The notes under the pieces are model-generated. The model had not been told where the DNA came from and ran no database searches. It saw nothing but the letters and a program-made list of their open reading frames with translations. A DNA stretch of 64,000 bases from a virus, in the IMG/VR virus record IMGVR_UViG_3300031418_000005, positions 182,338 to 246,337 of that record. One strand, written 5' to 3'. Of this stretch, positions 26,404 through 31,791 are shown in pieces (position 1 is the stretch's first letter; each line of letters starts with the position of its first letter). The position numbers were made by a program, and so were the translations under genes.

Positions 26404-26787
26404 ATGGCAATCTCACTTAAAAACATACGCGACCGCCTGCAAACTGTGGAGAGCAATTACGCCACCGGCCCCCGTGTTGATGGTCAGGTAGCGGCACAGG
26501 CGAATAACGCCCAAGACCGCTTCGCTGGATGGACACCGGGACAGTTGGACTGTGGCGGAACGTGTAGCTGGTCGTGCTCTAACGGTTGTTCGGCAAGTTG
26601 TACCAGTTGCTCAGGTACATGTACGTCGACATGTACAGGCAGTTGTACGGGCGGGTGTTCTACCGGGTGTTCGGGTTGCTCAGGTTGTTCAGGTAGTTGC
26701 TCTGGCGGCTGCTCGGGTAAATGTAGCGGGTGCTCTGGATCGTGCTCATCGAGCTGCACTGGCTGTTCTGGCTGCTCTGGGCCGTAG
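26404..26787 (+). CDS. Cys-rich CxxxC-repeat peptide 1 (putative radical SAM substrate), 127 aa, 21 Cys
   Basis: 49-aa leader MAISLKNIRDRL.. then a 78-aa core of CxxxC/CxxC units with mostly S/G/T spacers; AAGGAA RBS. Confidence 0.85.
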   Translation: MAISLKNIRDRLQTVESNYATGPRVDGQVAAQANNAQDRFAGWTPGQLDCGGTCSWSCSNGCSASCTSCSGTCTSTCTGSCTGGCSTGCSGCSGCSGSCSGGCSGKCSGCSGSCSSSCTGCSGCSGP

Positions 26788-26798
26788 TAGGAGACAAC

Positions 26799-27197
26799 AT
26801 GGCTATCAACCTTAAAGATATTCAGAATCGTCTGAATGTTATCGACGCCAACGCGTTAAAGACCGCAGCGGGCGTGCAAAGTTACATCCGTAACAAAGCC
26901 ACAAACAACTCCAACTTATTTGGCGGTCAACCGCGGGCGCACTATGACTGCGGCGGTACGTGTAGTTGGACGTGTTCATCCTGTTCAGGCGGGTGTTCGG
27001 GTTCCGCATCGGGAACGTGTGGGGCAAGCTGTTCTGCCAGCTGTACGTCTGGCTGTTCTTCAACATGTACAGGGTGTTCTGGTGCATGTTCAGGTGGCTG
27101 TGCAAATGGTTGCTCCGGTACCTGCTCAACAGGCTGTTCGTCTTCCTGTTCTTCCAGCTGCTCCGGTTGTTCTGGTTGTTCCGGACCAATGCGTTAA
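26799..27197 (+). CDS. Cys-rich CxxxC-repeat peptide 2, 132 aa, 20 Cys
   Basis: Start ATG 26799 after AGGAG: MAINLKDIQNRL.. leader, core begins DCGGTCSWTC. Confidence 0.85.
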   Translation: MAINLKDIQNRLNVIDANALKTAAGVQSYIRNKATNNSNLFGGQPRAHYDCGGTCSWTCSSCSGGCSGSASGTCGASCSASCTSGCSSTCTGCSGACSGGCANGCSGTCSTGCSSSCSSSCSGCSGCSGPMR

Positions 27198-27240
27198 GAC
27201 CCGATGCCCCATTTAACTTTTTACGAATTGGGGGGTTAGT

Positions 27241-29270: not shown

Positions 29271-30603
29271 TACTAAAGCACCGGCTCAAGAGCCTAAAAT
29301 CACCAAAACCTACCAGGTGGTGACCAACCTCTCCTGTAACCTCGACTGTGAATATTGCTACGAGCGTAAATATCCGCGTAACAATAAAGTCGATGACGCA
29401 GTAGACTTCATTCATGCGTGTTTCGACCGCGATCGTCACTTGACCAACGTCGAAGTTATCATTGACATTATCGGTGGTGAGCCGATGATGCAGCCGAAGA
29501 TTCTGAAAGCGGTGTTTGAAACGGCTGAAGAACTGGCGAAGCGTGATAACCGCGATGTCATCTTCTCTATCTCGACTAACGGGACATTGTTCGATAAGCC
29601 ACTGAACCGTGAGATTATCGAGCGCTGGCGTGACAAGCTGTCCATCGGTGTGTCTATCGATGGCCTGCCAGAAGTTCACGACCGTTACCGTATCTTCACC
29701 ACCACGCGTGAAGGGTCGTACGAAAAAGCCATGCGCGGGTATAACTACCTGAAATCGGTCGGTATCCTGGAGCTGGGTATCAAGGCAACCTTTACCTCTG
29801 AAACCCTGCCGAAGTACGCTGAGTCCATGAAGCACCTGATGGATGTCACCGGCGGTGGTACCATCTCGGGTAACGTGACGTACGAAGACATTCTGCCACG
29901 TACCATGGCGATGTCAATTGCACTCCAGATGATGGACGTGATTGACTACTGGTTTGAGAAAGGTTTCGAGAAAGACCCACGTAACCGTCTGACTCACATC
30001 TTCCCGGACGGCCTGGACTTTATGGCCACTTGGGACCCGGACTGGCGTCAAAAGCTCCTGGACGACGAAGCAACACGTCTGAACCCGGAGCGCGTCCGTC
30101 CGTTCTGCGGCACCGTAACCCACATGACCTGCCTGGGCTTCGACCGCAAGATTTACGGCTGTAACCGCTTTATGTCCACGGTCACCACCCGTCAGGCCAT
30201 CGCTGAACTGCGCGGGCGTGAAATCGTGAACATCGACAACAATAAGTTGTTGAACGAAATCCAAACACAGTACACCAACTACCCAGAAACCTGCCTGGGT
30301 TGTCCGATGAAGCACGCGTGTGGTAGTTGTGCCGCGGCATCATACGAGAACGGTGACGGGGAGATGGAAGACCGCAAAGCCTATCACGCTGAACGTCGCC
30401 AGTGTGGTTGGACAACCGCGAAACTGCTGGTTGCGGAATACTTCTACCAGAAAACCGGTACCACCCGTTATACCGATCTGAACGACAGGTCACAATGCTA
30501 CTGCGTGTCCTGTGTACGTGCCCGTAAAGAGGCAGCCGAGAAAACCCAATTAGGAGCACCAGCGAATGAAGTCGTTGCTGATTCACAATTTTACGAAGCG
30601 TAA
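29263..30603 (+). CDS. Radical SAM/SPASM peptide maturase-like protein, 446 aa
   Basis: CNLDCEYC, GGEP, STNG, SIDG..VHD; SPASM-type FCG..C..IYGC..CLGCPMKHACGSC..QC. Confidence 0.92.
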   Translation: MRDTKAPAQEPKITKTYQVVTNLSCNLDCEYCYERKYPRNNKVDDAVDFIHACFDRDRHLTNVEVIIDIIGGEPMMQPKILKAVFETAEELAKRDNRDVIFSISTNGTLFDKPLNREIIERWRDKLSIGVSIDGLPEVHDRYRIFTTTREGSYEKAMRGYNYLKSVGILELGIKATFTSETLPKYAESMKHLMDVTGGGTISGNVTYEDILPRTMAMSIALQMMDVIDYWFEKGFEKDPRNRLTHIFPDGLDFMATWDPDWRQKLLDDEATRLNPERVRPFCGTVTHMTCLGFDRKIYGCNRFMSTVTTRQAIAELRGREIVNIDNNKLLNEIQTQYTNYPETCLGCPMKHACGSCAAASYENGDGEMEDRKAYHAERRQCGWTTAKLLVAEYFYQKTGTTRYTDLNDRSQCYCVSCVRARKEAAEKTQLGAPANEVVADSQFYEA

Positions 30604-31156
30604 TCTTCACCTTGTTGCCGCGTTTATGCAAAAGCACGGCATGTACAACATCCACGCTATTGTGGAGCCGGACGCGTTCACTGATGAAGTGCGTCGTCTG
30701 TGCGTACGCTTCGGGCTGAACGTCATTCTGCCGCTGGACGGGGTTGAGAAAACCCACAATTCCATTGAGCAAGTGGAGAAGCGTAATCCGGGCTTCGAAC
30801 AGCGTGTTGCGGAATTCCCGCGCCACAAAATCGAAATCCTGCGTCGTTCTACGCAGAACCTGGATGTGGATAACCTGATTGGTCTGGCGTTAAACTGGGC
30901 TGACCCGGAGAATCCAGACGCCGCTGACCTCGTTGGGATTCGTGTGCGTGCCCTACGCTCCAATCATCAGTTCGATTCGTTTGGTGAAGAAATGCACCAG
31001 ACCTTTGTCTTCCAGGAACAGAACGGGGACTTGGCAGAGAAGATGAAGTTCATCTGGGGGGAGGAGCTGTCTGAGCACTTCCAACTGGTTGACTTCGGTC
31101 TGCTGATGGACCTCGGGTTAGCAGGAGAATCTGAATGCTTAGTAATGACGAGATAA
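30566..31156 (+). CDS. Hypothetical protein, possibly degenerate rSAM-fold, 196 aa
   Basis: The ORF track lists it as minus, but ATGAAGTCGTTGCTG.. (MKSLL) reads on the plus strand at 30566 after AGGAG, with TAA at 31154-31156; contains VILPLDGVEKTHN. Confidence 0.8.
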   Translation: MKSLLIHNFTKRNLHLVAAFMQKHGMYNIHAIVEPDAFTDEVRRLCVRFGLNVILPLDGVEKTHNSIEQVEKRNPGFEQRVAEFPRHKIEILRRSTQNLDVDNLIGLALNWADPENPDAADLVGIRVRALRSNHQFDSFGEEMHQTFVFQEQNGDLAEKMKFIWGEELSEHFQLVDFGLLMDLGLAGESECLVMTR

Positions 31157-31791
31157 AAGCCCGTTACTTCGAATTCGGTACCCCCATTGACCGGCATGGT
31201 AACTATGTTAACATTCTGGCGAAAGACGATGAGACCAAGCAGGGGTATTGTACTCTGCTTCACTATCATCTGTTAAACGGGGTGTCCGATAAAGCAGCCT
31301 TGAAAAAGCTGCGTGACTACGACCTCAGTGAACCGGAAGCCCAGTTCACGTTGCGTAAGGCCAAAGAGTTTATTGAGAAGGTGCTGGAGCTGCCGCTGGA
31401 TGAAATCCGCAAAGGCTTGACCTCGACGGTAAACTATCTCTATCAAGAGATTCAGCCTATCTATACGCGACTGGCTGAGAAGTACGAAGAGGAACGTCAC
31501 TCCAACCTGATGTTCCAGGGTGTGGTGTTGCAGGCCGATGAGAAATCACGCTCGGCATTAGCCAAATACATCCAGGCAGACATTGCCCCGGAGTATTGGG
31601 TGGATGCACAGAACAACCATCTCGATAACTTCGATTTGGCAGCGTGTAAAGCGGTACTGGCGGCGATTGTTGAGCGTGACGCCCAGCTGTTTGCGTCGAT
31701 GACTGAACTTAAGCGCAAAATCCGCACGTTGGCCGAGGCACAGGACTTTACCGGTATTAAATCGGTAGCGACTGAGAACGGCTTGCTGTAA
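31135..31791 (+). CDS. DUF4376-like protein (often tail-fibre-associated), 218 aa
   Basis: FQGVVLQADEKSR..YWVDAQNN..LAAIVERDAQLF resembles DUF4376; AGGAG RBS. Confidence 0.6.
   Translation: MLSNDEIKARYFEFGTPIDRHGNYVNILAKDDETKQGYCTLLHYHLLNGVSDKAALKKLRDYDLSEPEAQFTLRKAKEFIEKVLELPLDEIRKGLTSTVNYLYQEIQPIYTRLAEKYEEERHSNLMFQGVVLQADEKSRSALAKYIQADIAPEYWVDAQNNHLDNFDLAACKAVLAAIVERDAQLFASMTELKRKIRTLAEAQDFTGIKSVATENGLL

Follow-up and report, generated by a model that had tools for sequence, protein, structure and literature searches.

A radical SAM cassette with cysteine-repeat proteins in the tail-fibre module of a jumbo phage: a candidate maturation module for tail-fibre tips

The window analysed here is the whole stretch of 64,000 nucleotides at positions 182,338–246,337 of the IMG/VR record IMGVR_UViG_3300031418_000005, which is a complete virus record of 246,337 bp. 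This work concerns a gene cassette at positions 26404–31791 of the window, encoding three small Cys-rich proteins (pepA, pepB, and pepC) and two radical S-adenosylmethionine (SAM) enzymes (rSAM1 and rSAM2). The cassette showed 87% DNA identity with Stratton and phiEaH2, two Erwinia phages of the SPN3US-like jumbo type (Erskinevirus). Eight genes were found in it, all on the plus strand, with gaps of 11–43 nt and overlaps of 8, 38, and 22 nt between them. Lengths are given in amino acids (aa).

26404–26787, plus strand: pepA, 127 aa, 21 Cys; phrog_6085, E 6e-48
26799–27197, plus strand: pepB, 132 aa, 20 Cys; phrog_6085, E 4e-55
27241–27447, plus strand: pepC, 68 aa, 4 Cys, GTG start; phrog_6085, E 5e-27
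27461–28348, plus strand: conserved partner protein of 295 aa, fold without known match; phrog_8030
28365–29270, plus strand: rSAM1, 301 aa; PF04055, E 1e-14; phrog_1802
29263–30603, plus strand: rSAM2, 446 aa; PF04055, E 3e-14; phrog_1802
30566–31156, plus strand: protein of 196 aa, predicted partial (beta/alpha) barrel; phrog_7988
31135–31791, plus strand: DUF4376 protein of 218 aa; PF14301, E 3e-9, 37.6 bits (cut-off 25); phrog_8169

The best start of pepB was the ATG at 26799, within an open reading frame (ORF) at 26730–27197. A preliminary description of this DNA had proposed a tightly packed, co-oriented unit of eight genes that ends with a DUF4376-like gene, and both points agreed with the gene list and the above-cut-off PF14301 match. 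It had also recognised no transporter or protease. The scans with Pfam, NCBIfam, and PHROGs found no family of either kind among the eight genes, and a host enzyme could still serve.

The three peptides are paralogous and Cys-rich, as first described. All of them belong to phrog_6085, and they align over an N-terminal leader of about 50 aa and share an invariant core start, C-x-G-x-C-S-(W/F). PepA comprises an N-terminal segment of 49 aa and a Cys/Ser/Gly/Thr core of 78 aa with 21 Cys. The corresponding lengths are 50 and 82 aa (20 Cys) in pepB, and 48 and 20 aa (4 Cys) in pepC. Lys and Arg occur in the leaders. The core composition was 29% Ser, 25–26% Cys, 25% Gly, and 9% Thr, and the residue after a core Cys was Ser or Thr about 80% of the time. 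Every one of the 11 pepA orthologs has 21 Cys and the same first 10 Cys spacings (3333233333), and the first 15 spacings (333323333322333) are common to the 7 orthologs of Erskinevirus/Seoulvirus type. PepB orthologs have 20–23 Cys, with an Ala-for-Cys position kept in 9 of 12. The Cys gaps in these 23 orthologs (11 pepA and 12 pepB) comprised 371 C-x3-C and 77 C-x2-C. PepC is the most conserved of the three, with a mean column identity of 76% in 13 phages; its Wellingtonvirus-type orthologs have only 2 core Cys. The classes pepA, pepB, and pepC are each retained across four genera. The Pfam scan detected no fibre domain in any of the three peptides.

The Cys-rich frames are coding. In both leader and core, a comparison with 7–8 orthologs gave 2.5–3 times as many differences at the third codon position as at the first and second. 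The idea that these frames are a low-complexity artefact of a GC-rich repeat was rejected because of this third-position excess and the conserved Cys count and spacing. The peptide genes are poorly represented in public records. The GenBank record of SPN3US (L003 4097–5126) holds no peptide gene in the correct frame, and SPN3US_0166 is an out-of-frame ORF over pepB; the correctly framed ORFs lie at L003 4097–4489, 4500–4904, and 4920–5126. In SEGD1 (L002 4089–5117), gp169 and gp170 are wrong-frame ORFs over the Cys-repeat genes. PepC is unannotated in both records. The SEGD1 pepA ends after 47 aa and resumes in another frame, perhaps because of a frameshift or because the repeat was sequenced wrongly.

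Both enzymes matched the Pfam family Radical_SAM (PF04055) well above the cut-off of 29.5 bits (rSAM1, 55.4; rSAM2, 54.2). In rSAM1, C28/C32/C35 (CxxxCxxC) and C245/C248/C274 are invariant in 13/13 sequences, and merely three conserved Cys lie in the C-terminal part. In rSAM2, C25/C29/C32 (CxxxCxxC) and the auxiliary residues C282, C300, C344, C347, C353, C356, and C381 are invariant in 20/20 aligned sequences, including relatives at 29–37% identity. The auxiliary spacing is CxxCx5CxxC, which deviates from the usual SPASM motif by one residue. The closest solved relative of rSAM2 by sequence was CteB (5WGG, E 6e-34), whose SPASM region could be aligned with the seven-Cys region so that each Cys has its counterpart (independent E value 0.004). 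RSAM2 is thus predicted, from its conserved residues, to be a radical SAM enzyme with two auxiliary Fe-S clusters. Its cluster motif begins at residue 25, so it lacks an N-terminal domain and therefore has no room for an N-terminal RiPP recognition element (RRE), where RiPP stands for ribosomally synthesised and post-translationally modified peptide. RSAM1 and rSAM2 are related over the barrel (hhalign 97%, 188 columns). RSAM2 is the best-conserved gene of the cassette, with 61–98% identity across loci.

The family matches of rSAM2 point to peptide maturases. Its best NCBIfam match was PapB (NF047865; 130.4 bits against a cut-off of 340, E 8e-38), with residues 24–359 on profile positions 12–319 of 330. 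The second best was the CXXX-repeat maturase TIGR04115 (122 bits against 350, E 4e-35), near full length. TIGR04463 (cut-off 525) scored 52.5 bits for rSAM2 and 27.7 bits for rSAM1. PepB, the only peptide with such matches, scored 16.4 against TIGR04114 (cut-off 20) and 15.2 against TIGR04117 (cut-off 50). The companion family TIGR04119 ('CXXX_matur') was not found in the 246-kb genome at E up to 1. Membership in the TIGR04114/04115-type families, to which the preliminary description had likened the system, was therefore not upheld, with rSAM2 at 122 against 350, the peptide at 16.4 against 20, and TIGR04119 absent. The proposed pair of a radical SAM and a radical SAM/SPASM enzyme fared better: PF04055 matched both enzymes and the seven Cys align to CteB, and only the Pfam SPASM model failed to match. 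In Salmonella phage SPFM2, the rSAM2 homolog bears the name 'albA: Antilisterial bacteriocin subtilosin biosynthesis protein AlbA', which is over-specific and may mislead. Such an antibiotic-synthesis annotation invites wrong conclusions about the enzymes.

An alignment of distant rSAM2 relatives was used to search viral contigs and one genome per prokaryote species. The closest outside viral loci to the rSAM2 profile (347–399 bits) were L025, L026, L027, L028, and L032. Their contigs are 31–284 kb long, with a measured GC content of 33–56% in four of them; L032 is high-GC by eye. In all five loci, a protein that matches tail fibres ends in a Cys repeat, which makes up its C-terminal 40–110 aa. 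The fibre gene is followed in all five by a relative of the 295-aa protein and by one or more radical SAM genes. The fibres with a fused repeat gave the following matches.

L025, fused fibre: phrog_327, 1e-54; Pfam Phage_tail_fib, 2e-40
L026, fused fibre: phrog_3904, 2e-9
L027, fused fibre: phrog_2631, 3e-32
L028, fused fibre: phrog_6722, 2e-40
L032, fused fibre: phrog_11011, 2e-10

The relatives of the 295-aa protein in these five loci (E 3e-25 to 2e-41; hhalign 93%) are encoded at a distance of 9–46 nt from the rSAM2 homolog. The gene order in L025 is baseplate wedge, tail protein, Cys-tailed fibre, 295-like gene, rSAM2-like gene, rSAM1-like gene, phrog_1158 chaperone (E 9e-36), and sheath. 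A sheath gene also follows the fibre and radical SAM genes in L026, and a phrog_105 fibre-assembly gene lies beside the fibre in L032. The rSAM1-like gene is located 3′ of the rSAM2 homolog in L025 and 5′ of it in L026. At L027 (7155–9215; 284-kb contig, 33% GC), the rSAM1-like and rSAM2-like parts are fused into one protein of 686 aa, encoded directly after the Cys-tailed fibre and the 295-aa-like gene.

The repeats of the fibres and of the peptides are similar in sequence. The L026 fibre repeat starts with C-A-N-G-C-S-W-T-C-S-S, like the peptides of the window, and the start C-x-G-C-S-W-T-C-S is common to fibre and peptide. The peptide family phrog_6085 matched the C-terminal parts of the fibres of L026 (residues 270–357, 4e-12), L027 (3e-7), and L032 (2e-7). 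BLASTP of pepB against the C-terminal third of the L026 fibre gave E 3e-10, with leader residues 5–50 included in the alignment, and the peptide profile matched the L026 fibre with hhalign at 99%. Because of these phrog_6085, BLASTP, and hhalign matches, the peptide 'leader' looks like a piece of fibre shaft.

We propose, with a probability of roughly 60%, that the cassette serves the maturation of tail-fibre tips and is not a secreted-peptide pathway, and that its peptides are stand-alone tip proteins modified by radical SAM enzymes and built into the virion. Modification of a fibre is favoured over a secreted peptide because the same Cys repeat ends tail fibres in other phages. The comparative data likewise favour a possibility raised in the preliminary description, namely incorporation of the product into the virion. 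PepA, pepB, and pepC would each consist of a shaft-derived segment of about 50 aa and a tail with Cys at every third or fourth residue. For the jumbo phages, this would mean that the fibre-tip module has become three separate small proteins. The peptides are presumably the substrates of the radical SAM enzymes. RSAM2, aided by rSAM1 and the 295-aa partner, would modify the Cys repeat either ahead of fibre assembly or in its course. Most likely, covalent thioether cross-links would be formed and give a rigid tip that resists reduction. The leader would be retained and not cleaved. The peptide products are probably present in the virion, perhaps incorporated on the 399-aa fibre protein encoded just 5′ of pepA, which comprises an N-terminal domain and a coiled coil and lacks a distal domain. 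To judge from the gene order, the peptides may sit on this protein.

Another explanation is a classic RiPP pathway, which we consider quite unlikely. Here the leaders would guide the radical SAM enzymes. Lysis would set free the modified cores, with or without cleavage by a host protease, and these would be bacteriocin-like, signalling, or metal-binding peptides. The leader/core layout with its conserved leader and invariant core start would suit such a pathway, as would the maturase-type rSAM2 (nearest to PapB, TIGR04115, and CteB) and the weak matches of pepB to TIGR04114 and TIGR04117. Stand-alone small peptides of the same leader/core layout also occur in the gut-phage contigs L036–L046, L060, and L086. 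However, no protease, transporter, or immunity gene was recognised in the cassette, and the cassette lies within the tail-fibre module at every locus examined. Known RiPP cores are short, unlike the pepA-type cores of about 80 aa with a fixed number of 21 Cys. The RiPP-like system of the preliminary description holds in one part, as an enzyme of the peptide-maturase kind does lie beside leader/core peptides. The picture of a RiPP natural-product precursor is weakened, since each of the five closest outside relatives has the repeat at the end of a true fibre protein and since the 'leader' aligns to the fibre shaft.

The pairing of enzyme and repeat is widespread in viruses. A Cys-repeat ORF, taken as a run of at least 6 Cys at 2–6 spacing, was found on the same strand within 5 kb of the rSAM2 relative in 75/80 viral loci versus 8/80 bacterial-genome loci, where the enzymes are more distant from rSAM2. 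The proposed association of a radical SAM/SPASM-type enzyme of the maturase kind with putative Cys-repeat substrates therefore extends well past this phage. The repeat proteins occur as pairs of leader-plus-repeat proteins of about 115 aa, as N-terminal domains of 100–450 aa with repeats of up to 92 Cys, and as repeats with a C-terminal domain. The family phrog_6085 was matched by 13/30 Cys-repeat representatives. Ten Cys-repeat proteins were scanned singly, and fibre matches were obtained for 3 of them (L027, L028, and L032). Two more distant loci were examined, and in both of them tail genes lie near the Cys-repeat and radical SAM genes: L048 (minor tail protein, phrog_538, 3e-79) and L043 (tail-fibre protein, 4e-22).

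These counts also bear on the idea that the Cys-rich proteins are not substrates but bind metals or Fe-S clusters in a metallothionein-like way, while the radical SAM enzymes act on the large fibres, a cofactor, or a host molecule. Cores with 25% Cys at CxxxC/CxxC spacing could bind metals, and the role of the archaeal Cys-rich protein CrpA is likewise suspected to involve metals (PMC13692751). Yet enzyme and repeat stay together in 75/80 viral loci despite free variation in the remainder of the Cys-repeat protein, the fused forms carry the repeat within a fibre protein, and the nearest relatives of the enzyme are peptide maturases. We regard this idea as very improbable.

The chemistry is a separate question. 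If the fibre-tip reading holds, a thioether cross-link is a tentative choice that we put somewhat below an even chance; such links would be expected because of the analogy with the nearest enzymes and with the archaeal system CrpC/CrpA. The fibre module might also be right and the reaction another one, such as conversion of Cys or Ser to formylglycine or dehydro-residues (the reaction type of anaerobic sulfatase maturases), epimerisation, methylation, or two different reactions. This is rather unlikely in our judgement. The second-best solved relative of rSAM2 is an anaerobic sulfatase-maturating enzyme (E 9e-14), rSAM1 matches the epimerase YydG among other families, and two unlike radical SAM enzymes are kept together, with a second one within 5 kb in 30/80 viral loci. 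The cores have Ser or Thr after most Cys and lack the Asp/Glu/Gln acceptors of ranthipeptides. On the other side, thioether formers (PapB, the CXXX-repeat family, and CteB) head the family and structure matches, and a seven-Cys auxiliary domain is typical of such enzymes. Taken together, these points do not firmly decide between the reactions. More broadly, many phages, including SPN3US-like jumbo phages, P2-like prophages, and the phages of gut contigs, might post-translationally cross-link the tips of their receptor-binding fibres by radical SAM/SPASM enzymes into thioether-stapled cysteine-ladder rods. We hold the odds of this wider proposal to be just short of even.

Several points weigh against the proposed maturation module. 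The Pfam SPASM model PF13186 was not matched by rSAM2 in a scan at E up to 0.1, and rSAM2 scored well under the cut-offs of all named maturase families. The cores of the 11 pepA and 12 pepB orthologs hold no Asp, Glu, or Gln acceptors, and the chemistry could therefore be new or different. Of the ten Cys-repeat proteins scanned singly, the remaining seven, which come from more distant loci, had either no match (4) or a match to phrog_6085 alone (3). The 399-aa fibre is dissimilar to the fused L026 shaft, and docking of the peptides there is guessed from the order of the genes. Gp161–gp166 are mentioned zero times in the main texts of two proteomics papers on SPN3US, and the peptide genes lie outside the annotated protein set. 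As these genes are missing or mis-framed in the SPN3US and SEGD1 records, proteomic searches could not have found the peptides. Two wastewater metatranscriptome runs from one study contained about 20% of the sampled sequence words, and their short near-identical contigs covered 17/30 and 14/30 cassette bins. These RNA-library contigs are indistinguishable from carried-over phage DNA and were not counted as evidence of expression.

We had also considered that the 399-aa fibre and a peptide together are a split version of the L026 fibre. This claim was dropped because the 399-aa protein shows no similarity to the L026 shaft (best E 3.6). When the complete phage genome was searched in six frames at E up to 1, PF13186 was again absent, whereas the control genomes were matched.

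The system was compared with known ones. PapB/PapA, the freyrasin ranthipeptide system, likewise combines an auxiliary-cluster radical SAM enzyme with a C-x-x-x repeat substrate. The PapA motif is CXXXD (PMC12373016), whereas the phage cores lack Asp. The phage substrates are fibre-related proteins of 68–132 aa and not a short secreted peptide, the genes are encoded by a phage within its tail module, and rSAM2 scored 130 against the PapB cut-off of 340. The peptides of the CXXX-repeat system (TIGR04115/TIGR04114/TIGR04117) resemble the phage peptides, with Cys at every fourth residue and small residues between. The phage scores were all below the cut-offs of this system, and its TIGR04119 component had no match in the genome. 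We know of no biochemical characterisation of the CXXX-repeat (TIGR04115) family. The substrate of CteB is a short six-Cys peptide. Compared with rSAM2, CteB of the CteB/CteA system (SCIFF maturase, PDB 5WGG/5WHY) has about 100 extra N-terminal residues, and the alignment starts at chain residue 101.

CrpC, a radical SAM/SPASM enzyme of Methanococcus voltae in TIGR04463, installs ranthionine links in CrpA, a Cys-rich protein of 29 kDa (Dieter et al. 2026, PMC13692751). The C-terminal Cys repeat of a full-size protein is cross-linked in this system, and the leader-like N-terminus is kept without cleavage (PMC13692751). CrpA has a paralogous second protein with a common N-terminus (PMC13692751), as seen among the phage peptides. 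The acceptor motif of CrpA is C-X-X-Q/D (PMC13692751). CrpC is reported to have a predicted RRE domain (PMC13692751), for which rSAM2 has no room. CrpC/CrpA is archaeal and has no virus link, and the word 'phage' occurs 0 times in PMC13692751. The phage cassette thus belongs to a known kind of system, a radical SAM/SPASM maturase with a Cys-repeat substrate, and its proposed use on a virion structural protein is what would be new here.

The 295-aa gene occupies the position expected of a fibre chaperone. The fibre-assembly chaperone of P2 holds the position after the fibre, and the 295-aa-like gene of L025 lies in this same slot of the P2/Mu-type arrangement. Classical fibre chaperones fold the tip without covalent chemistry, whereas the phage cassette adds two Fe-S radical enzymes. 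The family scans and structure searches matched the 295-aa protein to no known chaperone family or fold. Its AlphaFold2 (AF2) model had a pLDDT of 85. No fold match was obtained in the PDB (best Foldseek E 0.14; best Z 4.3 in the wide VIA search, confined to the helical C-terminal part; no separate search with the N-terminal domain). The best E of its profile against PDB sequences was 0.55, and its ESM Atlas look-alikes (top score 0.83) suggested no family. The family has 35 representatives among 1.84 billion proteins, none of them fused to a further domain. Complex prediction of the 295-aa protein with pepC gave ipSAE values of 0.04 and 0.01 against a mark of 0.32, which counts neither for nor against binding.

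The 196-aa protein, with an AF2 pLDDT of 84, was similar to SuiB in the VIA search (Z 9.6; root-mean-square deviation 3.3; 152 aligned residues), and generic TIM barrels reached Z 7–8. The predicted structure resembles a radical SAM core without the cluster motif. In hhalign, the protein reached 0.2% against rSAM2 and 0.9% against rSAM1. The earlier view of it as a possible degenerate radical SAM-like protein thus finds support in the predicted fold and none in the sequence. No PDB relative of the 218-aa DUF4376 protein was found by sequence. Kinship of this protein with the fibre-assembly-type protein of L032 was tried and rejected (hhalign 0.7%). The 196-aa and 218-aa genes were confined to the SPN3US-like clade in a search of 160 further loci.

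Within this clade the cassette is highly conserved. The loci fetched were 6/6 from GenBank and 12/12 from IMG/VR, and the order of the 399-aa fibre gene, pepA–C, 295-aa, rSAM1, rSAM2, 196-aa, and 218-aa genes was kept in 18/18 of them, across four genera. The 399-aa gene lies directly 5′ of the peptide genes in every one. In the phage collection, rSAM2 (at least 80%) was found in 62 records and the pepB leader in 60. The hosts of the records with rSAM2 or the pepB leader were Erwinia, Salmonella, Escherichia, Cronobacter, and Proteus. In two of the relatives from IMG/VR, pepA and pepB are separated by an additional gene of rSAM1 type (about 304 aa, CNLDCSFC; L013 4542–5453 and L018 4531–5454). 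Its place amid the peptide genes ties the rSAM1 family to the peptides.

We found no description in the literature of the cassette or of radical SAM modification of phage fibres, and the phage genome papers, in the text consulted, merely list 'radical SAM' genes. SPN3US has an amber-mutant genetic system (PMC5105663), so the idea is directly testable. If the wider proposal of cross-linked fibre tips is true, no earlier case would exist of a virion structural protein modified covalently by radical enzymes, and RiPP chemistry would have been recruited for virus–host recognition. Radical SAM 'RiPP' chemistry would then extend to viral structural proteins, alongside archaeal CrpA. It would add a new layer to phage host recognition, in which Fe-S radical enzymes, besides folding, determine the final structure of the tip. 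Consequences would follow for how stable fibres are in reducing or protease-rich habitats and for how far infectivity depends on the Fe-S and redox state of the host. Fibre engineering would need the maturases to be co-expressed.

The cassette is surrounded by the following features.

19871–25093, plus strand: giant fibre/baseplate-type virion protein of 1740 aa (context); phrog_7449 and phrog_2163 'virion structural protein', residues 28–600
25138–26337, plus strand: short paralog of the giant fibres, 399 aa; phrog_2163, E 2e-109
26359–26373, plus strand: weak terminator-like hairpin in the gap between the 399-aa fibre gene and pepA; 5-bp stem, consensus scan only
31808–31836, no strand assigned: strong bidirectional terminator-like hairpin that closes the cassette; 11-bp stem, T run on both strands
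33728–34369, minus strand: tail assembly chaperone-type gene (context), 2 kb 3′ of the cassette; phrog_1158, E 3e-66

The family phrog_2163 covers the 399-aa protein and also the N-terminal 600 aa of the 1740-aa protein. The SPN3US homolog of the latter, gp168, is described as a baseplate/tail-fibre candidate and was detected in virions (PMC5694885). Two flanking terminators had been proposed; the downstream one is clear, and its upstream counterpart is weak. Past the downstream hairpin, two paralogous proteins of 168 and 178 aa are encoded on the minus strand at 31846–32352 and 32421–32957, head-on to the cassette. Both belong to phrog_4862 and have weaker matches to virion structural protein families.

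Some further Cys-repeat proteins were observed. Uninterrupted Cys runs of 92, 86, and 76 Cys (2–6 spacing) lie by a radical SAM gene at L104 5756–7198, L088 6152–7480, and L080 3515–4789, and far exceed the runs in the peptides of the window. At L112 6842–7938, in a metagenome-assembled genome of Acidobacteriaceae, two adjacent proteins have a twin-arginine-like signal (RRQFLR and a hydrophobic stretch) and a C-terminal Cys repeat. They lie upstream of a distant rSAM2 relative and may be a secreted cellular version of the system. An intein in a Cys-repeat protein is suggested by one of the 30 representatives, which matched Hint and Hom_end-associated Hint (E 5e-7 and 1e-9). Five phyllosphere metagenome runs, from which the window may itself derive, contained 99–100% of the sampled cassette words, which fits a plant-surface host of Erwinia/Pantoea type.

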